From positions 1 to 64,000 of IMG/VR virus record IMGVR_UViG_3300033070_000479: a DNA stretch of 64,000 nt. One strand, written 5' to 3'. Position 1 is the first letter of the stretch. Every line of letters begins with the position of its first letter. The translations under genes and the position numbers were made by a program. The DNA comes from a virus. Its lineage: Duplodnaviria > Caudoviricetes. The notes under the pieces are model-generated. The model did no database searches and was not told where the DNA came from. It saw only the letters and a program-made list of their open reading frames with translations. Of the stretch, positions 21,249 to 32,663 are shown piece by piece.

Positions 21249-23147
21249 TTGTCAGTCGTCGCCACAACTAACCCGTGCGCGTGCCCGGACCCTAATTGGG
21301 ACGACGAGCCGGTGCTCGACCCGCCAGTGCCTCCGCCGGCGGAAGAGAGTTACTCGGTCTCAGATCCGACTTGCTACGGATTTTGTCAGTGGCAGCTGGA
21401 GGATGATGGTAATCTGGTGCTTCTGACTCCGAATGCGTGTGGTTCCGGCTGCGGGTGCTCCGAACCGTGTAGTTGTCCGGCAGAAGCTACCGTCGGATCT
21501 ATCATTTCTAGCCGCTGCTCGGTAAATCCGTCTAAGGTAGACAAAATCTCATGCGCCTCTCTGACGTCAACTACCACTACTGCAGACCCTAACTCTACAA
21601 CCACCGTAGACCCAAATGCCGACGGCTGCTGCACGAGGACTTTAACTTACTACACCGTCTCCGATGCTCAAATTATTTGTAACCCATCTCCGTACGACAT
21701 ACCGGGAACAAACCGTATATGGCTGAGCGAGAAACTCGAACCAAATACAGAGCAGTGTGCTCAACTTTTTAGGATGTACGGAGTTTACGGGGCGGGCTTC
21801 GGCGAGCAAACTCCCGAGTCAGCTGCATGCTCGACTGTTCGAGAAGTACGAAACACGCAAACATCGGTAGGATGTGGAGGTACGATCACGACTACGTTGT
21901 GCGCCGAGTTGCCTAAGTGCAGCGGCTCGTGCGCGTACGTTACCCTATTAAATACTGATACTGACGAACTAGAGTGGTTTAGAGGGTGCAGCACCTGCTG
22001 CGAAGAGACAAGTGACTACGGGGATAAATGTAACTGCGATGTGCCGCTAAATCCCCCCGTCAGTCTTTGCTCCGCGGCCATAACTAGGTGCGGCGATGAT
22101 CGCGGAAGCGGTAACTGCACCGGCACCTGCTTATTTCAGTACGACAAGCCAGGCGGCGGATGGGAGTACGTATCGTCACAGTGTCCCGGGTGCTCTTGTT
22201 CTCCGCCAGACTGGTCGGACATACCTGACACTGACGGAGAGTATCGTTGCACACCGTGCCTGGTCCCTAACGACCCGCCAACGTCTTCCACGACTACTGA
22301 GAGCCCATGCCCGTGCAGCGACTACTGCACGTGGCGCAAAGAAGACTCCGGCTGGACGCAGACCGTCGACTGCGTACTAGGGTGCTGCTCGTGCCAACAG
22401 CCGGTGTTTATTGAGGGCCTGCCGGACGGCACCTTGGCCCAGACGCCGTGCGTGGACTCTAGCCTACCGACAACGACGTCGACCACTACCACGACCTCAG
22501 GGCCGTGCATCAACCTGTGCGAAGTCAAGTACCAGACCGCAACGGTCTCGGGTGTAACCGGGTGCTTCTTAACCCGAGTTACTGGATCGGACGGGTGCTC
22601 GACCCCGTGTCAGTGCCCCGGCAGAACTCTCACAGCGCCGGATACAAATCTTGTAGCTACCGGGTCTTGCCCGGCTCCGCTGGAAGGCGCTACGGCCTGG
22701 GTGCCGTGCGAGCCGGAACCGACCACGACAACGACGACTACCACGACGACTACGACCACGGCCGCCCCAGTGTTCTCATGCGTGTGCTGCCCTCCGTCCG
22801 GAGGTGGTAACGGGTTCACGTCGAGAGCATGTATGTCCGGGTCTCAGACGTTCTGGGAAGGCCTCGGATGCACGGTGTTCGGTGAGTACTCGTCCTCTGG
22901 GGCCTGCACGTCTGCGTGCGTCGGCCCGGACTGCAGATGGGGCGGGTACCACTGCCGCAAGTATCCGAGCATTACCGGGCCGGCTGGTCCGAAAGTGTGT
23001 ACGTGCGTGCCGGAAGAGACTGTCGGCGGCCTAGGGTTGTGCGCGGCGCCGTTCGCAGACTTGGCTTCGTGCCTAGCCGCTAACTGCGGGTCGATCACGC
23101 CCACTACGGCCGGGCCTACGACGGAGCCGCCGTTGGGCGGGGACTAA
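21249..23147 (+). CDS. Cys-rich modular protein with Thr-rich linkers (putative fibre/adhesin)
   Basis: About 64 Cys in 632 aa by my count; five copies of a CxxxC...C..C.C.P...C module; Thr runs up to 13 residues. Confidence 0.7.
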   Translation: MSVVATTNPCACPDPNWDDEPVLDPPVPPPAEESYSVSDPTCYGFCQWQLEDDGNLVLLTPNACGSGCGCSEPCSCPAEATVGSIISSRCSVNPSKVDKISCASLTSTTTTADPNSTTTVDPNADGCCTRTLTYYTVSDAQIICNPSPYDIPGTNRIWLSEKLEPNTEQCAQLFRMYGVYGAGFGEQTPESAACSTVREVRNTQTSVGCGGTITTTLCAELPKCSGSCAYVTLLNTDTDELEWFRGCSTCCEETSDYGDKCNCDVPLNPPVSLCSAAITRCGDDRGSGNCTGTCLFQYDKPGGGWEYVSSQCPGCSCSPPDWSDIPDTDGEYRCTPCLVPNDPPTSSTTTESPCPCSDYCTWRKEDSGWTQTVDCVLGCCSCQQPVFIEGLPDGTLAQTPCVDSSLPTTTSTTTTTSGPCINLCEVKYQTATVSGVTGCFLTRVTGSDGCSTPCQCPGRTLTAPDTNLVATGSCPAPLEGATAWVPCEPEPTTTTTTTTTTTTTAAPVFSCVCCPPSGGGNGFTSRACMSGSQTFWEGLGCTVFGEYSSSGACTSACVGPDCRWGGYHCRKYPSITGPAGPKVCTCVPEETVGGLGLCAAPFADLASCLAANCGSITPTTAGPTTEPPLGGD

Positions 23148-23160
23148 ACAGGAGACTCTC

Positions 23161-24972
23161 ATGGACCGTGACTTTACTGTCGGCATGGCGTGCTTCAACG
23201 ACTTTGACGGCGTCTACTTCACAGTAGAGGCTCTGAAAGTGTTTCACGCCGACAGGGTGGCGCAGATCATCGTCGTTGACGACTCGCCCGAAGGCCCGGT
23301 CCAAGAACGGACCATGAAGTGGTGCCGTAGGCTGTCCAACGTGCTCTACGTCCGGTCTCACGTACACGGCACCTCGGCCCCGCGTAACCGGGTGTTTGCG
23401 GAGGCTACGTCTGAGAAGGTTGTGTGCATCGACTCACACGTCCTGATACACCCCGGGTCGTTTTCTGCCCTGGACGACTTCTGGGCCGTTACTGCCGGCC
23501 ACGGTATCCGCCTAGCTCACGGCGTCTTGATGGAGGACGACAACCGGGTTCCGCTGTCGTCGTTCCGAGACGAGTGGGGCGACGACCTGATGCACGGGAA
23601 GTGGCACACAGACACAGCACAGTTTCCTCTGACTAACCTACGCGTGCCCGGTACCGCGGCGTACGCGTCCGATGACCTCGGACGTCCGGTCGCCGCCAAG
23701 CCGTGGATCGACGTGTGGTCGCAGGGGCTGGGCGGGTTCGCCTGCCTTAGGGACGAGTGGCCGGGCTTCCACCCGGGGTTTTCCCAGTTCGGCGGAGAAG
23801 AGGGCTACATTGACGACAAGTTCAGGCGTATGGGCGGGATGGCGGTATCCGTATCCGGGTTCCGGTGGACTCACCGATTTCATGACCAGGACGTCAAAAC
23901 ACCGGCCTCCTCCTATTCGAGATCTACTGTCGCAAAGTTCCGGAACTACGTACTCGGACGTCGAGACAATTTACTACAGACTGCTGATGTCACGGCGGCT
24001 TACGCCGGTAAAGGACACCCCGCCGAGAGGTGGGCGTCCGACGTAGAGACGGAAGTAAATGCTAAGCCGTCGAAGACGCAAGGCTCAGTCACCGTCTCCG
24101 CCCCTGCCCCCGCCAAGAAGTGCGGAGGGTGCGGAGCGGGTGGGTCCAAGGAGGTTGCCGAAAAGTGGGCTGAGGTCATGTCCCGCAACGCGGAGTTGCG
24201 GGCCATGATCGAATCCGTGAAATCGATAGCCGCAGGAAAACACGTGTGGGTAGGGCCTGAGGCGTACGCAGGCGTCCTGGAGTCGTCGGCGTGCGTGGCG
24301 GCAGTGGCGGCAGGCGCCGCGTCGGTAACCCTGTGTGTGCCGAAACAGGACGATACGACTAAGAACTGGGTTCAGTCCGTCACGTCCATGCTGTCCGACA
24401 AGGTGTCTGTGTCGAGCCGAGACATGTGGCCAGGTCAGGCGATCGTGCTGTCCCCCGTAGGACTCCCTGGCGCCGTAAAGGAGTACACGCACGAGATCTC
24501 TAAGGTGGGGTCGTCGTGGGTCGTGTCGACGCGCGCCGCAGAGCCGAAGAGGATTCCGCTGCCGGTAACCAACGCGGCCGCAGTCGCCGCACAATATCCG
24601 GATCACGCTGTCGTGAAGTCCGCCACCGGAAAACCGGAATTGGCTCCGGTGTGGGAACTGGACCCGTCCGTCAAGGTACTGCCGGGTCGCGGCCGCATGG
24701 CGCTCAACTACTTGAAGTTTCTGACGTCGGATAAAGAGCAGGCCACCCCGGAAGTCGCCAAAGAGCGCATGGACAAGTGCTGGACGTGCCCGAACCGTAA
24801 GCCGGTGCTGTACCCGGACCGCAACTGGTACCAGCGGTGTACGGATACGGAAGAAGCTAAGGGGTGCGGCTGCTTCCTGGACTGGTCTCCGCCTAACCCC
24901 AACAACAACACGCAGCCCGAGCCGGGTAAGGTGGCTTACGCCGACCAGGCCTGCCCGCGCGGATTTTGGTAG
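23161..24972 (+). CDS. GT2/GT-A glycosyltransferase with C-terminal Cys-motif domain
   Basis: FTVGMACFND...IIVVDDS...RNRVF...VVCIDSH (DxH variant of DxD), FGGEEGYI; C-terminal CxxC...C...CGC...CP.G.W; CAGGAG SD. Confidence 0.8.
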   Translation: MDRDFTVGMACFNDFDGVYFTVEALKVFHADRVAQIIVVDDSPEGPVQERTMKWCRRLSNVLYVRSHVHGTSAPRNRVFAEATSEKVVCIDSHVLIHPGSFSALDDFWAVTAGHGIRLAHGVLMEDDNRVPLSSFRDEWGDDLMHGKWHTDTAQFPLTNLRVPGTAAYASDDLGRPVAAKPWIDVWSQGLGGFACLRDEWPGFHPGFSQFGGEEGYIDDKFRRMGGMAVSVSGFRWTHRFHDQDVKTPASSYSRSTVAKFRNYVLGRRDNLLQTADVTAAYAGKGHPAERWASDVETEVNAKPSKTQGSVTVSAPAPAKKCGGCGAGGSKEVAEKWAEVMSRNAELRAMIESVKSIAAGKHVWVGPEAYAGVLESSACVAAVAAGAASVTLCVPKQDDTTKNWVQSVTSMLSDKVSVSSRDMWPGQAIVLSPVGLPGAVKEYTHEISKVGSSWVVSTRAAEPKRIPLPVTNAAAVAAQYPDHAVVKSATGKPELAPVWELDPSVKVLPGRGRMALNYLKFLTSDKEQATPEVAKERMDKCWTCPNRKPVLYPDRNWYQRCTDTEEAKGCGCFLDWSPPNPNNNTQPEPGKVAYADQACPRGFW

Positions 24973-24995
24973 ACACACGCTAACAGGAGTTTCCA

Positions 24996-25811
24996 ATGGC
25001 TACGCCTCTAGTGACCGCCATGTGCCCTACGTTCGGTAGACTCCCGAAACACAGGCACTTGCTGTGTCAGTCGGTATGGTGCTTTACGCAGCAGGATTAC
25101 CCCAACAAAGAGATGGTGATCCTGAACGACGCGCCGAATCAGACGATAGGTTGTACGGTTCCAGGCGTGCGCGTCATTAACTGCCCGTCGCGGTACAAGA
25201 GTCTAGGCGAAAAGCGCAACGCCCTCCTGGCCCACGCACGGGGCGAAATACTGTTGCCGTGGGACGACGACGATATCCACCTATCGGGCCGGATGTCGCA
25301 GGCGGTAACTATGCTGGACGGGTTCGAATACTGGAACCCTCAGGCTTCGTGGTACATGAACCCTGTCGAGACGGGCGGGGCGTTGTCTCACACCCACAAC
25401 CACGGCGTGTGCCACAACGCTTCTGCTTTTCGAGCCGGGGCGGTATGGTATGACCCGGTGTCCGGCGGAGAAGACCGTAAAGCCGACCTGCGGGCCAAGG
25501 CAAGTAAAAAGACGAACCACCGGAACCTCGTGAGCGACCCGGCGTCGTGGGAGTACATCTACCGGTTCGGGGTCGGCAAACATATCTCGTCCGTCGCTGA
25601 AGATAGGTCACAGGAGGAGTACGACCGACGTACCGCTACGCCGGGTTTGTTTTACATCAGCCCCGAGGAGCCTCCTGAGTTCAAAGAGTGGATGAAGCAG
25701 CGGAGTGCCGCCCTGGGGCCGTCCATTCAGATAAGCCACACGTCAACGCCTGGGCCGGAGATGCGGAAGCCGACCTTCCTAGAACGACTTCTGGGGGTAT
25801 GGACGCGATGA
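24996..25811 (+). CDS. GT2-family glycosyltransferase
   Basis: LVTAMCPTFGR...QDYPNKEMVILND...LGEKRN...GEILLPWDDDDIHLSGRMSQAV. Confidence 0.88.
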   Translation: MATPLVTAMCPTFGRLPKHRHLLCQSVWCFTQQDYPNKEMVILNDAPNQTIGCTVPGVRVINCPSRYKSLGEKRNALLAHARGEILLPWDDDDIHLSGRMSQAVTMLDGFEYWNPQASWYMNPVETGGALSHTHNHGVCHNASAFRAGAVWYDPVSGGEDRKADLRAKASKKTNHRNLVSDPASWEYIYRFGVGKHISSVAEDRSQEEYDRRTATPGLFYISPEEPPEFKEWMKQRSAALGPSIQISHTSTPGPEMRKPTFLERLLGVWTR

Positions 25812-26686
25812 CGCCATCCGCCGCAATAACCGAGTCTCTAGCTTCCGCGGACCAGTCGCGCATTGTCGACGGTACCGGTGTTGGGGTGGTTACTTGCGGC
25901 GGAGGTCCCTACCAGTACGGCATCTACGTACTGGTAAAAATGCTGCGTCTGTGCGGCTACGCCGGCGGGGTGTGGGTGTGGCACCGCGGGCCGGCTGAGC
26001 CGGTCTGCAGCGCCATTCGAAAGATGCCCGGCGTTACGGTGGTGGACGTCGTTAAGGACGCGGAAGACAACGGGCTGAGAGCCCCCGCCGGTGGCTGGGA
26101 ATGCAAGGCGTACGCCATGGCGCGGACACCGGTTAAGGTAGCCGCCTTCTTTGACGCAGACGCGTACCCAGTCAACTCGATCGACGCGTGCCTCGAAACT
26201 GCCGAGGCCGAAGGAGAAGTTTTTTGGCGTGACCTGGATAACGCCAACCTGCAGTGGAGATCGTTAGGTCTAGAAGTCCCCAAGCCGAAGTGGATTCCCG
26301 TCAACGGCGGGCAGTGGGTCGTTAACCGCGAACTCCGCAAACCGCAGCTCGCTCTCTACTCGGCGCTCACCGACAGAAGCTCGGTGCTGTACCGGTACAT
26401 GCTGGGCGATCAAGACTGCCAGTTGCTGGCATGGTACCTGACCAACACCAGGTACTTCATCGGAGACCTCGAAGAGGTGCGCCAAGTGAGCGGTGTGCTC
26501 GTGTACGACTTTCCTCACGGCAGGACGCAGGTGCTGCACCGCATCGGGTCGAAGATGGCGCCGTCCGGAATGTTCTCGCGTGGCACGTACTCTGGTCCGG
26601 TTAGAGGTCTGCCTCTGGAGCGACAAGCCACCTCTTTTTACGCCGAAGCCGTAGACGCCGTCGGCGTGCCGATTCGCGCTAAATAA
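25808..26686 (+). CDS. GT71/Mnn2-like alpha-mannosyltransferase-family protein
   Basis: GVVTCGGG, GWECKAYA, FFDADAYP (DxD), FWRD, NGGQWVVNR and GDQD motifs; ATGA coupling gives a start at 25808. Confidence 0.65.
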   Translation: MTPSAAITESLASADQSRIVDGTGVGVVTCGGGPYQYGIYVLVKMLRLCGYAGGVWVWHRGPAEPVCSAIRKMPGVTVVDVVKDAEDNGLRAPAGGWECKAYAMARTPVKVAAFFDADAYPVNSIDACLETAEAEGEVFWRDLDNANLQWRSLGLEVPKPKWIPVNGGQWVVNRELRKPQLALYSALTDRSSVLYRYMLGDQDCQLLAWYLTNTRYFIGDLEEVRQVSGVLVYDFPHGRTQVLHRIGSKMAPSGMFSRGTYSGPVRGLPLERQATSFYAEAVDAVGVPIRAK

Positions 26687-26790: not shown

Positions 26791-27135
26791 ATGAGCGTTC
26801 AAGGAAGCAGCGACAACCTGATCAGCGTCACGTACCAGCCGGCCAGCTCGGACGTGCCGGTGGTCGTCCAGCTGCCGGCAGGCAGCACGGTCGGGCACTT
26901 GCTCGCCCACCGGGCGGTCAACTCCTCGGCGACTGGTCTGGTGTTCTTGGTCAACGGCAACAAGTCCACCACGGAGACGATTCTGTCGGAGGGCTCCCGG
27001 GTCGTCTCGATGAAGGCCAAGGTGGCCGGGGCCGTGCTCGTCGGTCAGGAAGACGACATCTACGCGATCGACGCTAGGCTGGCTGCCGGTATGGAAGCGG
27101 CCTACAAGGCCTTCAAGGCCTGCGCCGGGCTCTAA
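26791..27135 (+). CDS. ubiquitin-like (beta-grasp, ThiS/MoaD-like) protein precursor
   Basis: VQLPAGSTVGHLL...FLVNG...TILSEGSRV beta-grasp signature; fold ends at KVAG (G80) and is followed by a 34-aa extension. Confidence 0.75.
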   Translation: MSVQGSSDNLISVTYQPASSDVPVVVQLPAGSTVGHLLAHRAVNSSATGLVFLVNGNKSTTETILSEGSRVVSMKAKVAGAVLVGQEDDIYAIDARLAAGMEAAYKAFKACAGL

Positions 27136-27141
27136 GACAGA

Positions 27142-28293
27142 ATGTTAACCGAAGCTCAACGCTCCCACGCCGCCGCGCAATTTGCCGCGGCGGCGTGGTC
27201 TTTGTCTACCGCGGCATGCCAGAGTGCGCCGCGCGGACCGTGGATCAACGAGCTGGCGACCTTATCCCACGCCATCTACGAAAAGACCAGTCGGTACAAC
27301 GCGGCCGTTCAGAGCCCCGCATCGTACGGCGGATCTCGAGGCGTGGCTACCAGATTCAAAGAGCTGAAGCAGGCGTGCGCCAAGTGGCGGAGTACGTACG
27401 CGAGGGCTATGGCCGGAGGACTCAAAGATCTGTCGTGGACGAGGCAGTCGGCGATTCCAAAGACCTTGGTGCAGACGGCAGAATCGGGTCTGGTGGGTTT
27501 GGAGAAGGACGGGTTCGTCCTCACGTACAGCATCGAGCAGAAGACTCTGACAGTGCATGCTCGTGAGCCGACGATAATCGAGCTACAGTACGACCACGCC
27601 GTTCACGGGACCGGCAGCAGCGCGGCGAGAACTAGGCTGGAGAAGATAAAGGCGTCTTTCCCGATCCCGCTAAACTTCGGGAGGATGAAGCTCACGTTCA
27701 GCCTCGGCAATACCGACATGCTGAACTACGACGCGTACATCAACGCCATGGCTAGATGCGCCTTTACTGGGTCCAAGACGATAAAGAGCGGCAACTACTA
27801 CCACCCGCACGTCAAGAGCGACGGGGTGGTGTGTCTGGGCGATACGGTCCGGGCCTGCAACAACATGTTCAAGAGCGGGTCCATCAGCGAGATCGTGCAC
27901 ATCTTCGCGTTGGTGTGTTCGAACTACAACAGGCACAGCCCGTACATCGATCTGCACAGGTTCGTCCTACCTTCCTGCGGTGCATGCGGTGGGTGGGAGT
28001 GTCCGCCGACTCAGGAACAGCGCGAAGACGTAATCAAGAAGTGCTTCTCGTGCCGAAGGGACGTCTGCCGTCGCAATAGGTGCTCGGAGGTGTGCGCTGA
28101 GACTGGTAACTTCGCGTGCATGTCCTGCCTCAGGAAGTGTACGGCGTGCAGCAGGGGTTACGCCGTCAACAGCAAGGGGTTCGCGTCGTTCGTGTCTTAT
28201 CCGGGTAAGTGCGGGGTCTGTACGGGCACGCTGCCGGCCAGCACCCTGCTATCCGAGCAGTCCGAGACCGGCACACAAGGGCCGTCTACGTAA
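27142..28293 (+). CDS. E2 (UBC-fold) conjugating enzyme fused to a Cys-rich zinc-finger region
   Basis: YYHPHVKSDGVVCLG matches the E2 HPN(I/V)..G.ICL motif (C231); NYNRHSPY matches the downstream N..SP motif; 14 Cys in aa 279-360. Confidence 0.75.
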   Translation: MLTEAQRSHAAAQFAAAAWSLSTAACQSAPRGPWINELATLSHAIYEKTSRYNAAVQSPASYGGSRGVATRFKELKQACAKWRSTYARAMAGGLKDLSWTRQSAIPKTLVQTAESGLVGLEKDGFVLTYSIEQKTLTVHAREPTIIELQYDHAVHGTGSSAARTRLEKIKASFPIPLNFGRMKLTFSLGNTDMLNYDAYINAMARCAFTGSKTIKSGNYYHPHVKSDGVVCLGDTVRACNNMFKSGSISEIVHIFALVCSNYNRHSPYIDLHRFVLPSCGACGGWECPPTQEQREDVIKKCFSCRRDVCRRNRCSEVCAETGNFACMSCLRKCTACSRGYAVNSKGFASFVSYPGKCGVCTGTLPASTLLSEQSETGTQGPST

Positions 28294-29268
28294 GTGATCA
28301 CAATCAACAGAAGGACAGATAATATGCCAGACGGCGGACCGGTCATCTCCGGTGAAATCGCGGCGACGGACAAGTCGAATTCGGTAGTGAAGACCAGATT
28401 GCGCGGGGTGGACAAGGACGGCAACGCGCACAGGCTCGTCATGAGCCCTACCGCGTTCCTGCAGGCGAAGACCATGGTGTTCTGCGACGATAGGGAGATA
28501 TCGGCCATGGCGGTCGTCGCCGAAGACGACCCTCTGTACGTCGAGCGCTTCGACATCGTCGAACAGGAAGGCAGCTCGGCCTTTACCGAACTTGACGGCG
28601 CCGCCCTCCTCTGCCGGTCCGAGTCCTACTCTCAGTTGGGCATCGGGTACGACAGGACTATGCGGGTGTGGTTCCACACGCACCCGTTCAGCTGTGCGGC
28701 TAACCCGTCCGCCACCGACAACAGCACGTTCGCGGACGTGTTCGGCAACATGCCGTTTGCCGTGATGCTCATTCACAGCAAGGACGGCAGTTGGGGCGCC
28801 ACACTGCGGGTCGGGCAGGGCAAGATCGGCGTCAAGACCAAGCTCTCCGGAGTAGAGGTCGACTGGTCCGCCGTACCGGACATGCCGGCGTTTGACCCGC
28901 AATCCGTGATCGACGAGGTCAAGAAGCAGGTCAAGACGCGGGCGTACCAGGCCGTGCAGTTTTATCAGCCGACGCACGCTGTCAGCGGTAAGCGCTGGGA
29001 CAGCGATTACGGCGGCAACCGGTGGTGGGACAAGGCGACGAAGGTCGACAACGGACCGATCACGCACGCCGGCGGCGTGGTGAAGGGGAAATTCGACGGG
29101 GGTTACGGTCCCAGCGAGGAATACCGCCCGAACCGTAAGACCAAGAAGCGCCGCCGCACCAACGTGTCGTACGAGGACGCCGCGAAGATGTGGGAGACCG
29201 ACTTTGCGGACGCCGACGCCCTGGAAGAATACCTGCGTAACGCCGAGCAGCACGATGCGGGCGAGTAA
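28294..29268 (+). CDS. JAB/MPN+ (JAMM) metalloprotease (putative Ubl-processing enzyme/DUB)
   Basis: E68...H128-T-H130-P...S139-x-x-D142. Alternative start at ATG 28324 with an AAGGA SD. Confidence 0.88.
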   Translation: MITINRRTDNMPDGGPVISGEIAATDKSNSVVKTRLRGVDKDGNAHRLVMSPTAFLQAKTMVFCDDREISAMAVVAEDDPLYVERFDIVEQEGSSAFTELDGAALLCRSESYSQLGIGYDRTMRVWFHTHPFSCAANPSATDNSTFADVFGNMPFAVMLIHSKDGSWGATLRVGQGKIGVKTKLSGVEVDWSAVPDMPAFDPQSVIDEVKKQVKTRAYQAVQFYQPTHAVSGKRWDSDYGGNRWWDKATKVDNGPITHAGGVVKGKFDGGYGPSEEYRPNRKTKKRRRTNVSYEDAAKMWETDFADADALEEYLRNAEQHDAGE

Positions 29269-29956
29269 CGTCGTCGACACGCCGATCAGTGCGCGAAACG
29301 AGCGCCAGCGGTCGGTCTTGCCTGAGGCGGCTCTCTTGTTTCGTCCGGCAGTAGTCATCGGGGTGGGGGCTATCGGACGCCCTACGGCCGAGATGCTGTC
29401 CGGTACCGGTGTTCGCAGGCTGGACCTCTGGGACTTCGACACGGTCGAAGAGGTCAACATCGGCAACCAGGGTTACAGGCCTTCCGACGTCGGTAAGCGT
29501 AAAGCCGACGCCTGTAAAGAGTTCTGCGTGGCGAAGTCGCCGTCCTCGGCCGTGCGCGCCATGTACGAGGCGGTCGGCCCGTCCACGTCTATCACGGACG
29601 AAAGTCCCGAAGACGTAGCGGTGTTTTGCTGCGTGGACAAGATGTCCGCCCGCAAGGAGATCGCCTCTCTCTGCAAGGCGAACGGGGTTGGCCTGTTTGT
29701 CGACACCCGCATGCTGGGGGACGACGTACGCGTCTACTGCTGCCGTACTCCTGAAGCGTACGAGGTGTACCTTAAGGAGCTGTTTACAGACGAAGAGGCC
29801 GAACCCGGACGGTGCGGGAATTCCTCTAACGTCTACGCGTCAAACACGGCCGCCTCTCTGGCGGTCAAACTGTGGACCTTGTGGCTACGGGATCTCCCGA
29901 GCCCCAAGGAAGTTGTGGCGACCCTTAGCGGGTTCGCAATCGTGGCCGACTACTAG
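29255..29956 (+). CDS. ThiF/MoeB-family E1-like adenylating enzyme
   Basis: VIGVGAIG, DFDTVEEVNIGNQ, GKRK, FCCVD and FVDTRM motifs; candidate catalytic C187 (EPGRCG); no CxxC zinc motifs. Confidence 0.9.
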   Translation: MRASNVVDTPISARNERQRSVLPEAALLFRPAVVIGVGAIGRPTAEMLSGTGVRRLDLWDFDTVEEVNIGNQGYRPSDVGKRKADACKEFCVAKSPSSAVRAMYEAVGPSTSITDESPEDVAVFCCVDKMSARKEIASLCKANGVGLFVDTRMLGDDVRVYCCRTPEAYEVYLKELFTDEEAEPGRCGNSSNVYASNTAASLAVKLWTLWLRDLPSPKEVVATLSGFAIVADY

Positions 29957-29993
29957 TCGGCCTTTCTTTACCGACCCCATAACAGGAGAGAAC

Positions 29994-31334
29994 GTGGCCA
30001 AAGCCAAAGGAACTTCCGCGTCTGTGGCGCAATCGCTGCCGTCGACTCTGACCGCCGACGGCATCGAGGACATGATCGTCAAGTGTGTGCAGTCCCACGT
30101 GGTCCCGATGATCTGGGGTCCGCCAGGGGTCGGTAAGACCCGTCGCATCGAGGCCGTGGCCCGGCGTCTGGCCCAGCACACCGGGTTGTCGGCAGAAGTT
30201 CACACGCTGATCTGCTCCATGTGCGAACCCAGCGACCTGGCCGGCTTCCCGATCGCTGACGGAAAATACCGCCGGCCGGACGGGTCGGACTTGTCGGTGG
30301 TCCAGTTCGCTCCGCGGGAGTCCTTTGTGCGCTTGGCGACGCACGGCGGCGTCCTGTTCTTCGACGAGCTGTCCACGGCCCCACCGTCCATCCAGGCGGT
30401 GGCGCTGCGGATCATCAACGACCGCGTCGCCGGCGACATTCACTTGCCGCCGAACAAAGTCGCCATGATCGCCGCCGGAAACCCGCCCGAAACGGGGGCC
30501 GGCGTGTTCGACCTGTCGGCGCCGATGGCCAACCGGCTCTGCCACCTCCAGTGGCCGACGGACTCGCAGTTCCGCCGGGCCTGGGCGGAAGACTTCATCT
30601 CGTACTGGGGCAGCCCGCCGAAGGTGGAGTTCAACGGCCGGCAGGTTCCGGAGGAGTTCTACTCGCGGGCCCGGCGCGCCGTCTCGGCGTTCATCATGGC
30701 GAGCCCGGAAAACCTGCTGCCGGTTCCCGGTCAGTCCTCGACCGGAACCGGTACGATCGCCGACCTGGCGTACCCGACGCCCCGGTCGTGGGACGCCGCG
30801 GCCCGCGTGCTGGCGTCCGGCGAAAGCCGGCTGTTCGATAAAGAGGAGGGCCAGGCCATGCTCAGCCTGATCTCCGGCCTCGTCGGCACCGGCCCGGCGC
30901 AGGCGTTCTCCAAGTTCATTCGCGACTCGGACCTCCCCGACCCGGTCCGGCTGCTGGAAAACCCGGAGTCGTACCAGCCGCAGAAAGAAAACTTCGTGGC
31001 TTACGCGACCGTGACGGCCGTCGTAAACCTGGTACTGTCGTACCTGGCCGTGAGCCGGGATGAGCTGCGGGCGGCCAAGTCTTCGGACCCCGTCTACCGC
31101 AAGGCCGTCAAGTACGTCATGAACGGCGCCAAGCTCGTGGTGGCCGCCGGCGAAGGACGTCTGGAAACGGCCAAAGGCCCTCTGGACCGGCTGCTGGCGG
31201 CGGCCCGGGAAGTCCACCTGACGCAGCAGGAGCAAGTGGCGCTCAACTCCATCACCGCACCGTATGCGAAGGACATGCAGCGGTACAAGAACATGGTCGT
31301 CACCAGCGTTCGGACCGTCTCCACGGAAAAGTGA
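29994..31334 (+). CDS. MoxR-like AAA+ ATPase
   Basis: Walker A GPPGVGKT, Walker B LFFDE, AAGN sensor 1, LSAPMANRL, PTPRSW; CAGGAG SD before GTG 29994. Confidence 0.9.
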   Translation: MAKAKGTSASVAQSLPSTLTADGIEDMIVKCVQSHVVPMIWGPPGVGKTRRIEAVARRLAQHTGLSAEVHTLICSMCEPSDLAGFPIADGKYRRPDGSDLSVVQFAPRESFVRLATHGGVLFFDELSTAPPSIQAVALRIINDRVAGDIHLPPNKVAMIAAGNPPETGAGVFDLSAPMANRLCHLQWPTDSQFRRAWAEDFISYWGSPPKVEFNGRQVPEEFYSRARRAVSAFIMASPENLLPVPGQSSTGTGTIADLAYPTPRSWDAAARVLASGESRLFDKEEGQAMLSLISGLVGTGPAQAFSKFIRDSDLPDPVRLLENPESYQPQKENFVAYATVTAVVNLVLSYLAVSRDELRAAKSSDPVYRKAVKYVMNGAKLVVAAGEGRLETAKGPLDRLLAAAREVHLTQQEQVALNSITAPYAKDMQRYKNMVVTSVRTVSTEK

Positions 31335-31347
31335 GGACCAGACGACG

Positions 31348-32616
31348 ATGACTAGTTCAGAACGGATTACTGCGGCCAAGTTGCTGGCCGTGCAGTGGTG
31401 GCCGTACTTGGCGGACGCCGTCGTCCGCCTCCCGGTCAGGTTCTCTCCCGGCGTCCCGACCATGGGCGTCTCGAAAGATTGGATCCTGTACATCAACCCG
31501 GAATGGGCGGACAAGCAGAGCGTGGCGATGTTGGCCCTCATCATCGCCGGTCACGAAGTCGGTGGGCACCTGCTCAACGACCACGCGTGCCGCGCAGCCG
31601 GGTTGCACCACGAACTGTCGAACATGGCCGGCGACTTGGCCATCAACTGTCACCTGAAGAACTACCGCGACAGCGCCTGCTTGAGCGGTGCGAAGGATCA
31701 GATCACGGTCCCGGATGACCCTGAAGAGGCCCTCTATCCGAAGAACTTCAAAGCCAAGGACGGTACGCCTTTTCCAGACAACCTGATGATGGAGGAGTAC
31801 TACGCCCTACTCCTCGACAACGCCACACTCATCGGTACCGGCCAAGGGAAAGGAGACGGCAAAGGGAAGTGCAAGTGCGGGTCCGGCGCCACCGGGGTCG
31901 CGGAAGACTGGGAGGAGGGCACGTCTGTCGGACAAGACGGCCAAGACCAAGGAGTCAGTCCGGCGGAAGCGTCTCTGATTCGCGACGCGGTGGCTGCTGC
32001 GTGCAAGAAGCACGAAGAGCAGCGCGGACGTGGGTCAGTGCCGTCCGGGCTACTGCGGTGGGCTGACGACAGGCTCCGCCCGCCACAGGTTCCCTGGACG
32101 ACGCAGATACGCAGGCACATCCAGCGTATCGTGGCGGGGCGCGGCAGGGGTGACTACTCCTACACGCAGTACAACCGCCGGTCTCAGGGTCGTCTGATTC
32201 TGCCGGGCATGGTTGAGCACAAGAAGAAGTGCAACGCGGTTCTGGACACGTCCGGAAGTATGTGTGACGAACGCATACGGGCCGGCTTGTCCGAGCTGGT
32301 GGCGGCGGCTTCTCACCTTGGCCCTATCCAGCTGTTTGCGTGCGACGCCGCGGCGGCTGACGCCGGTACGCTGCGTACCAAATCGGACGTGAAGAAGCTG
32401 AAACTGCAGGGCGGAGGCGGCACCGACATGGGTGCAGGCCTGAACGCCGCCGCAGAGTCCAAACCGACGTTTACGTTGGTACTAACCGACGGCGACACCC
32501 CGTGGCCGGAAGACAAACCTACGGGGTTAGGAGAAATCCTGGTCGTGCTTATCGGCCGGTACGGGGCAGACCGAGTTCCGGACTGGGCCGAATGGGTGGC
32601 TGTCGACGACGGCTGA
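31348..32616 (+). CDS. metallopeptidase-like domain plus vWA domain protein (DUF2201-type)
   Basis: HEVGGHLLNDH, NMAGDLAIN, CGSGA; MIDAS residues DTSGS, GGGGTD and LTDG; GAGGA SD before ATG 31348. Confidence 0.85.
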   Translation: MTSSERITAAKLLAVQWWPYLADAVVRLPVRFSPGVPTMGVSKDWILYINPEWADKQSVAMLALIIAGHEVGGHLLNDHACRAAGLHHELSNMAGDLAINCHLKNYRDSACLSGAKDQITVPDDPEEALYPKNFKAKDGTPFPDNLMMEEYYALLLDNATLIGTGQGKGDGKGKCKCGSGATGVAEDWEEGTSVGQDGQDQGVSPAEASLIRDAVAAACKKHEEQRGRGSVPSGLLRWADDRLRPPQVPWTTQIRRHIQRIVAGRGRGDYSYTQYNRRSQGRLILPGMVEHKKKCNAVLDTSGSMCDERIRAGLSELVAAASHLGPIQLFACDAAAADAGTLRTKSDVKKLKLQGGGGTDMGAGLNAAAESKPTFTLVLTDGDTPWPEDKPTGLGEILVVLIGRYGADRVPDWAEWVAVDDG

Positions 32617-32627: not shown

Positions 32628-32663
32628 AACCCCCGGGGCTACGGCCCCGGGGGTTTACTTTTT
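32628..32663 (+). terminator. intrinsic terminator ending the Ubl-AAA-vWA operon
   Basis: Perfect 12-bp stem AACCCCCGGGGC/GCCCCGGGGGTT, C(UACG)G tetraloop, then TACTTTTT. Confidence 0.8.

Follow-up and report, generated by a model that had tools for sequence, protein, structure and literature searches.

We analyzed a window of 64,000 nucleotides (positions 1 to 64,000 of the record IMGVR_UViG_3300033070_000479, part of an 80-kb uncultured IMG/VR viral contig with a CheckV completeness of about 54%), focusing on two consecutive genes that encode a MoxR-class AAA+ ATPase and a partner protein in which a zincin metallopeptidase domain is fused to a vWA domain. These genes lie directly 3' of a cassette encoding a ubiquitin-like protein (Ubl), an E2, a JAB and an E1 (Table 1). 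A sequence-only reading of this DNA had joined all six genes in one operon and proposed that Ubl-tagged substrates are recognized by the vWA protein, remodelled by the ATPase ring and cut by the peptidase domain. Our results point instead to an autonomous N4-like MoxR-vWA chaperone-cochaperone pair, a core module of its phage group that is separate from the Ubl cassette and that probably helps a phage or host complex to assemble or mature. With due reserve, we hold this to be the probable explanation.

This reading is carried by the identity of the genes, by the folds and motifs of their products, and by the synteny and independent assortment described below, and from these we infer how the pair might work. 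The ATPase would form a MoxR-class ring, the Mg2+-binding MIDAS of the partner's vWA domain would capture a client peptide, and ATP hydrolysis by the ring would remodel or release the captured client, which the zincin domain, fused N-terminal of the vWA domain, might clip. The client would presumably belong to a phage (or host) protein complex that is being assembled or matured. The four genes Ubl-E2-JAB-E1 would form a mobile unit, inserted into a slot of varying content 5' of the pair in the lineage leading to the window and to L002, its close relative, and the pair, which may be reached by read-through from the cassette, would function without need of Ubl tagging. Capture of a client peptide by the MIDAS followed by its ATP-driven remodelling or release by the ring is the general mechanism known from NorQD, CbbQO, RavA-ViaA and the chelatases and summarized for MoxR-vWA systems (PMC7159879). 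Moreover, the pair is located here between a block of tail/baseplate and glycosyltransferase genes and the terminase gene, a position that fits the virion-assembly role proposed for such pairs.

Table 1. Position of the MoxR-vWA pair, the Ubl cassette and the predicted hairpins in the window.
Feature	Position	Strand	Basis or remark
MoxR-class AAA+ ATPase, 446 amino acids, N4 gp24-like	29994..31334	+	Pfam, PHROG, motifs, AlphaFold2 (AF2) fold, tblastn
Zincin (M48-like) metallopeptidase domain fused to vWA/MIDAS domain, 422 amino acids, N4 gp25-like cochaperone	31348..32616	+	Pfam, PHROG, profile, AF2 fold
Ubl-E2-JAB-E1 cassette, adjacent, separately inherited	26791..29956	+	Pfam, motifs, synteny
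Ubl	26791-27135	+	
E2 with Cys-rich tail	27142-28293	+	motif HPH...C
JAB	28294-29268	+	motif HTH...S..D
E1	29255-29956	+	ThiF 6.8e-22
8-bp GC-rich hairpin with U-rich tail	29944..29962	+	terminator scan; spans the E1 stop codon
Intrinsic-terminator-like hairpin 3' of the vWA gene	32628..32655	+	12-bp perfect stem, 10 GC, then T-run
Perfect 13-bp GC-rich hairpin, then TCTTTGTCT	27165-27198		terminator scan; 30 nt past the Ubl stop

The ATPase and its zincin-vWA partner

The ATPase gene starts with a GTG codon that is preceded by an AGGAGA motif. Its product matched AAA_5 of Pfam (34 bits for a cut-off of 22, 3.4e-8) and phrog_1297 of the PHROGs (3.6e-54), and both the Walker A (GPPGVGKT) and the Walker B (VLFFDE) motifs are intact. 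In the alignment of 40 relatives, G45 and K48 were invariant and D124 and E125 nearly so (at least 90%); N180 and R181 were also invariant. The AF2 model built on these 40 relatives (pLDDT 87) was searched with Foldseek, and the top matches were NorQ (3e-7, including complexes of NorQ with the vWA protein NorD), CbbQ2 (7e-6) and the MoxR protein CHU_0153, followed by dynein. At the sequence level the ATPase matched nothing in the PDB, so that this placement came from the fold search only. The classical AAA family PF00004 scored 19.4 bits, under its cut-off of 21.2, and tblastn matched N4 gp24 and the MoxR-like ATPase of cyanophage S-TIM5. We conclude that the product is a MoxR-class AAA+ with a NorQ/CbbQ-like fold, and not a classical AAA of the Rpt, Cdc48 or FtsH type. 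Members of the MoxR class (RavA-ViaA, NorQD, CbbQO, chelatases) remodel complexes via vWA adaptors and are not known to feed a protease.

The vWA gene had been given a start at 31264 in the sequence-only reading; we corrected it to the ATG at 31348, 13 nt past the ATPase stop codon, with a GAGGA motif overlapping that stop. The spacing between the two genes is likewise 13 nt in L002. From N- to C-terminus, the protein matched DUF2201_N (87 bits, 1.9e-24) and DUF2201 (51 bits, 1.7e-13), both over the cut-off, and its PHROG is phrog_1314 (3e-46). A profile of 32 family members showed a weak match to an M48 peptidase (3c37, 1e-4) around the zinc motif, which together with Pfam is the basis of the zincin assignment, and the same profile also matched the vWA domain of the Mg-chelatase BchD. 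The AF2 model (pLDDT 84) showed a vWA fold (Z 13), and the wide structural search was made with the vWA domain, residues 260-423. The MIDAS is intact in the 32-sequence alignment: the D, the T and both S of DTSGS are invariant (the G nearly so), and so are the GGGGT stretch and TDG. Therefore, the identities first given to the two genes, a MoxR AAA+ and a vWA-peptidase, are borne out by AAA_5, DUF2201_N and DUF2201, by the Walker and MIDAS motifs and by the folds.

We also looked at how the vWA domain compares with eukaryotic domains of ubiquitin-like contexts. Rpn10 and the MIDAS of Rea1 were found among the fold matches at Z 10-12, a score that integrin and complement domains exceed (13); as modelled, the vWA domain is no closer to Rpn10 or to the MIDAS of Rea1 than to vWA domains in general.

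The zinc motif, near residue 70, reads HEVGGHLLNDH in the window and in L002 and is one residue longer than the canonical HExxH(x4)H. HExxH was found in 27 of the 30 other aligned relatives (HHxxH in the remaining three) and in the loci L005-L008, L113 and L133. As the HExxGH motif is catalytically competent in the M49 dipeptidyl-peptidase III, zincin activity of the protein with HEVGGH is, judging from the motif, uncertain rather than excluded. The HEVGGH form is confined to the window and L002, the two genomes that have the Ubl cassette directly 5' of the pair. We considered it as a possible mark of Ubl-linked pairs and rejected it, as L008, L113 and L133, in which the pair also stands beside Ubl-system genes, carry HExxH. 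More generally, no sequence feature was found to be unique to the vWA proteins of loci with both modules.

The annotation of this family deserves a remark. Phrog_1314 and many GenBank phage records call the zincin-vWA protein an "HNH endonuclease" or "homing endonuclease", a label that conflicts with the Pfam domains and the predicted fold and that looks like a propagated mis-annotation.

Among known systems, the window pair is of the already known N4 gp24/gp25 type, formed by a MoxR protein and a metallopeptidase-vWA protein. It shares with this type the two-gene layout, in which the gene of an AAA_5 ATPase precedes that of a protein combining a zincin at its N-terminus with a vWA domain at its C-terminus, as well as membership of PHROGs 1297 and 1314, and tblastn matches to N4 gp24 and to the "N4 gp25-like protein" of LUZ7. 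On the contrary, it is only 22-29% identical to the members from cultured phages, has HEVGGH instead of HExxH, and lies directly 3' of a Ubl cassette, none of which showed up in the listed vWA-bearing GenBank phages. Pairs of a MoxR AAA+ and a metallopeptidase-vWA protein were described in jumbo phages by Iyer et al. 2021 (PMC7824862), who proposed a role in virion assembly and proteolytic processing by analogy with the tail chaperones of Acidianus two-tailed virus. In that archaeal virus, the MoxR-vWA pair p618/p892 has an experimentally supported role in tail assembly (PMC7159879, PMC7824862); going by its description, it resembles the window pair but has no peptidase domain. The NorQ-NorD, CbbQ-CbbO and RavA-ViaA systems are also alike, as NorQ and CbbQ are the best folds for the ATPase and the partner has a MIDAS-type vWA domain. 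Their partners, however, lack a zincin, their clients are respiratory or carbon-fixation enzymes, and the window ATPase has no sequence-level match to solved structures.

Separate inheritance of the pair and the Ubl cassette

The closest relative, L002, keeps JAB-E1-MoxR-vWA together with the downstream genes, and its proteins are 73% (vWA, gene at L002 3395-4645), 82% (ATPase) and 92% (TerL) identical to those of the window. Four further loci, L005, L006, L007 and L025, encode vWA proteins that are 30-35% identical to that of the window and share with it the order glycosyltransferases, MoxR, vWA and the downstream genes d5/d6; a reverse-strand TerL is common to the window, L006, L007 and L025. 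No Ubl, E2, JAB or E1 was found in these four syntenic relatives. The slot 5' of MoxR is occupied by a DUF6171 protein in L006 and by an unassigned open reading frame (ORF) of 625 amino acids in L007, with a GT9 glycosyltransferase coming next in both loci. The slot of L005 holds a classical AAA of 438 amino acids (L005 4688-6004), Cdc48/p97/BCS1-like, in which an N-terminal hydrophobic segment was seen by eye; tblastn with this protein revealed no classical AAA in the window. We also considered that a diverged cassette could be hidden between the glycosyltransferases and MoxR in L006, L007 and L025. This was rejected by Pfam (L006, L007) and by a ThiF search of the whole records of all three (contigs of 94-110 kb), which found none.

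The vWA tree agrees with this picture, placing the window and L002 in a clade with L005, L006 and L007 that has 98% support. A vWA clade specialized for Ubl was therefore rejected, since the window and L002 group with cassette-free relatives, and L113 and L133 form long unplaced branches. Taken together, synteny and the vWA tree indicate that the pair is vertically inherited core equipment of this phage group and that the cassette sits in a slot of variable content.

We then counted how often the two modules are found together. Viral-contig scans with the single E2 or vWA protein gave no relatives, and alignment queries were needed. With these, 363 IMG/VR stretches were found to encode a relative of the vWA protein. 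The ATPase was close by in 73 of the best 80 of these 363 loci, mostly within 2.5 kb upstream, while an E1, E2 or JAB lay within 10 kb only in L008 among the same best 80. Conversely, among the best 80 loci with an E1 relative, at least 49 had a JAB match, almost always within 2 kb upstream of E1, and only L133 and L113 had a vWA gene within 10 kb. Over whole records, DUF2201_N was present in 3/80 E1-bearing viral records and in 1/33 of those at least 90% complete, and ThiF was present in 1/84 vWA-bearing records and in 0/27 of those at least 90% complete. Only one record of such completeness, G025, contains both modules, and they lie in distant parts of its 172-kb genome.

Of 50,697 GenBank phage records, 658 matched the ATPase, 121 the vWA protein and 49 E1, which with the 363 IMG/VR stretches agrees with the earlier statement that MoxR/vWA pairs are common in phages. 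E1 was carried by Flavobacterium FpV4-like phages, crAss-like phages and jumbo phages of Xanthomonas and Erwinia, and the vWA protein by N4-like phages of Pseudomonas, Klebsiella and Acinetobacter and by PA5oct-like phages. The organism tallies for E1 and for vWA had no genus in common among the ten named for each (two more vWA genera being unnamed). Thus, the cassette-free L005, L006, L007 and L025, the vWA tree and the counts of 3/80 and 1/84 indicate that the modules mostly assort independently, which is largely the outcome that the sequence-only reading had itself named as contrary to its proposal.

The cassette was also characterized on its own. Ubl and E2 are separate genes in the window, the Pfam match to ThiS in the cassette is weak, and the JAB protein has 1073 representative relatives. 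The closest bacterial kin of the E1 belong to compact cassettes of the order small protein-E2-JAB-E1, located in integrase/resolvase islands that have neither AAA_5 nor DUF2201. Experimental proof of ubiquitin-like conjugation in prokaryotic systems comes mainly from anti-phage defence in bacteria. Recognizing the adjoining MoxR-vWA pair as a core module that predates the cassette, rather than one of its own components, guards against over-reading the locus as a "viral proteasome".

Possible coupling of the two modules and other explanations

Several observations weigh against the explanation that we favour. L008, L113 and L133 also place MoxR and DUF2201 genes beside a Ubl/E2/JAB/E1 set, each in another order. 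Where the window and L002 have Ubl-E2-JAB-E1-MoxR-vWA, L113 has MoxR-vWA-Ubl-E2-JAB-E1, with a Ubl of 133 amino acids that ends in QGA and whose gene overlaps the vWA gene by 14 nt. L133 has MoxR-vWA-E1-Ubl (96 amino acids, ending in GGGK), then an ORF of 507 amino acids, JAB and a second ThiF gene, the 507-amino-acid product being a putative E2 that lacks the HPH..C motif. In L008, MoxR-vWA is followed by five small genes, including those for an RNase H and a dual-specificity phosphatase, and then by E2-E2-JAB-E1. On the E1 tree, the joint state corresponds to 4 changes, at least 3 of them forced by well-supported branches, so the juxtaposition is sporadic and recurrent. The probability of chance was roughly estimated at 0.001-0.09 for co-occurrence (depending on the GenBank base rate chosen) and at 0.01-0.09 for adjacency given co-presence, values to be taken with caution as accessory genes cluster in phage genomes. 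Moreover, the 37 nt that separate E1 from the ATPase gene gave no promoter-like match in the sigma-70 scan, and the pair therefore probably depends on transcription through the cassette. Finally, to our knowledge, no client has been identified for any phage pair of this type, so that the assembly role is itself a prediction.

The recurrent juxtaposition lends some weight to a facultative coupling, in which the pair is mostly autonomous and has been recruited to the Ubl system in a few lineages including this one. There, it might serve as a chaperone while the conjugation complex assembles, or act on Ubl-tagged targets by remodelling or releasing them, with the MIDAS binding Ubl or the tagged client. 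In its favour, four phage lineages have the modules side by side in four gene orders, the E1 proteins of the joint loci are scattered on the E1 tree, and the fold matches of the vWA domain include Rea1 MIDAS-UBL complexes. A bacterial precedent is also published, the FtsH-ternary vWA-MoxR conflict systems with a complete Ubl, E1, E2, JAB and RING set, which occur in multicellular bacteria (Kaur, Burroughs, Iyer, Aravind 2020; PMC7159879) and are the only published class that we found with MoxR and vWA in an operon with E1, E2, JAB and Ubl. Their own parts are a two-domain FtsH-type AAA, a beta-propeller-vWA protein, a Ubl-E2 fusion with EAD1, a RING E3 and a caspase effector. In contrast, no FtsH-type AAA was found in the window (tblastn with the L005 AAA), its vWA protein has a zincin and not a beta-propeller, and its Ubl and E2 are unfused. 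As for Rea1/Midasin with its MIDAS-UBL contact and Rpn10, they likewise combine vWA/MIDAS domains with AAA+ rings in ubiquitin-like contexts, yet the likeness is one of analogy only, with fold scores no better than those of unrelated vWA domains.

Against a facultative coupling, each module occurs without the other in 96-99% of cases, and G025, the sole record at least 90% complete with both, keeps them apart. All contigs with the modules side by side are incomplete, and such contigs reveal only nearby pairs, a bias towards adjacency. Each joint E1 has nearer kin without the MoxR-vWA pair, and for the vWA proteins of L133 and L113 the closest viral relatives come with MoxR and vWA but no E1. 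The vWA proteins of the joint loci share no exclusive feature, HEVGGH being limited to the window and L002, and the variable slot 5' of MoxR fits an insertion hot spot. We therefore regard facultative coupling as a tentative alternative, serious enough to be kept in view. A broader version of the idea, that MoxR and the zincin-vWA protein were repeatedly recruited beside viral Ubl cassettes as a Ubl-linked remodelling and processing module, with the MIDAS reading Ubl or the tagged client, we find doubtful to a slightly greater degree. Nevertheless, the recurrent placement in unrelated phages and the bacterial precedent lead to a testable hypothesis, namely that the vWA/MIDAS protein binds Ubl or its conjugates in L008, L113, L133 and the window. 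If this were true, Ubl-linked MoxR-vWA modules would be for viruses what the FtsH-ternary systems are for bacteria, with a remote analogy in function to the Rea1 MIDAS-UBL interaction.

The autonomous pair could also serve host takeover or counter-defence, with a host protein as the target that it remodels or cleaves and no part played by the Ubl cassette. Consistent with this, the pair stands in L008 and L113 beside RNase H and dual-specificity phosphatase genes, a replication-type setting, and not beside structural genes, and the vWA family is widespread in bacteria, actinobacteria especially. The gp24/gp25 homologues of N4-like phages presumably sit among non-structural genes as well. We nonetheless consider this function improbable, because in the present phage group the pair comes 3' of the tail/baseplate and glycosyltransferase genes, because none of the family members has a known host target, and because the published prediction for jumbo phages is virion assembly and processing (PMC7824862).

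The least credible is a proteasome-like machine in which the vWA protein would recognize a Ubl-tagged substrate, the AAA ring unfold it and the fused peptidase degrade it. In its favour, JAB, vWA, AAA and peptidase recall, as a list of parts, Rpn11, Rpn10, Rpt and the core particle, all six genes adjoin each other on the same strand with the strongest terminator 3' of the vWA gene, and Rpn10 is among the vWA fold matches. Against it, the ATPase is of the MoxR class (NorQ, CbbQ, MoxR and dynein folds, PF00004 under cut-off), the sole peptidase domain, an M48-like zincin, sits on a vWA adaptor and is not a compartmental or AAA-fused protease, its zinc motif HEVGGH is non-canonical, Rpn10 scores no better than integrin I-domains, and the syntenic relatives keep the pair without any Ubl system. 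An obligate tag-unfold-cleave machine is thus not supported, given the class of the ATPase, the adaptor-fused peptidase, the generic vWA fold and the retention of the pair in relatives without Ubl. The parallel of JAMM, vWA, AAA and protease with Rpn11, Rpn10, Rpt and core had been offered as an analogy only, and so it stands.

Hairpins, transcription and neighbouring genes

The E1 stop (29956) and the ATPase start (29994) are separated by a gap of 37 nt, as had been noted, together with the statement that no strong terminator separates the two genes. The gap was confirmed, whereas the second part needs qualification, as a conserved 8-bp hairpin with a U-rich tail lies across the E1 stop. Its stem has 6 GC and its loop 3 nt, TTTCTTT follows, and its stability (dG -14.4 kcal/mol, z -3.3) was reached by 0/200 shuffles. 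The stem of the hairpin, its non-coding 3' arm included, is identical in L002, the remaining spacer having diverged. It is possible that this hairpin is a leaky terminator, an attenuator or an RNA-stability element between the modules.

Two further hairpins were revealed in the region. The one 3' of the vWA gene (dG -30.8 kcal/mol, z -4.0) is kept in L002 in a 10-bp version and, with its perfect stem and T-run, agrees with the terminator that had been predicted to close the unit. The other lies within codons 8-19 of E2 (dG -37 kcal/mol over an 86-nt context, z -3.7) and could attenuate transcription or translation, leading to more Ubl than enzymes.

A sigma-70 scan of 26-34 kb found no site on the plus strand and none 5' of Ubl, and all intergenic spacers, read by eye, showed no common promoter-like motif. 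Because nearly all long ORFs from position 1 to about 39 kb of the window are on the plus strand, co-direction is uninformative on a six-gene operon. A long late transcript with graded attenuation fits the data equally well.

Regarding the neighbourhood, Pfam assigned no function to ten upstream ORFs (507-21006, presumed structural), nor did PHROGs to the eight genes 3' of the vWA gene. The stretch at 21249-26686 of the window encodes a Cys- and Thr-rich protein of 632 amino acids, followed by three glycosyltransferases (GT2, GT2 and Mannosyl_trans3-like). Glycosyltransferase genes were also seen 5' of MoxR in L005, L006 and L007, and L025 has at least one Mannosyl_trans3-like match there.

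Other loci showed variations of the cassette. The two ThiF-type E1 genes of L133 (9977-10642 and 13104-13682) flank the Ubl, 507-amino-acid and JAB genes, and the tandem E2-like genes of L008 (5635-6513 and 6513-7748) both encode HPH...C and a Cys-rich tail. In addition, a classical, PF00004-like AAA recurs near E2-JAB-E1 in eight E1-bearing viral loci (at 1561-2019 in L099, and 6-10 kb from E1 in L092, L095, L098, L102, L103, L105 and L111), as well as in a mobile island of Novipirellula (L173 4921-6414). Seven of the eight viral loci fall in one E1 clade with 97% support, and the presence of this AAA near the cassettes may reflect lineage-specific synteny rather than a functional link.

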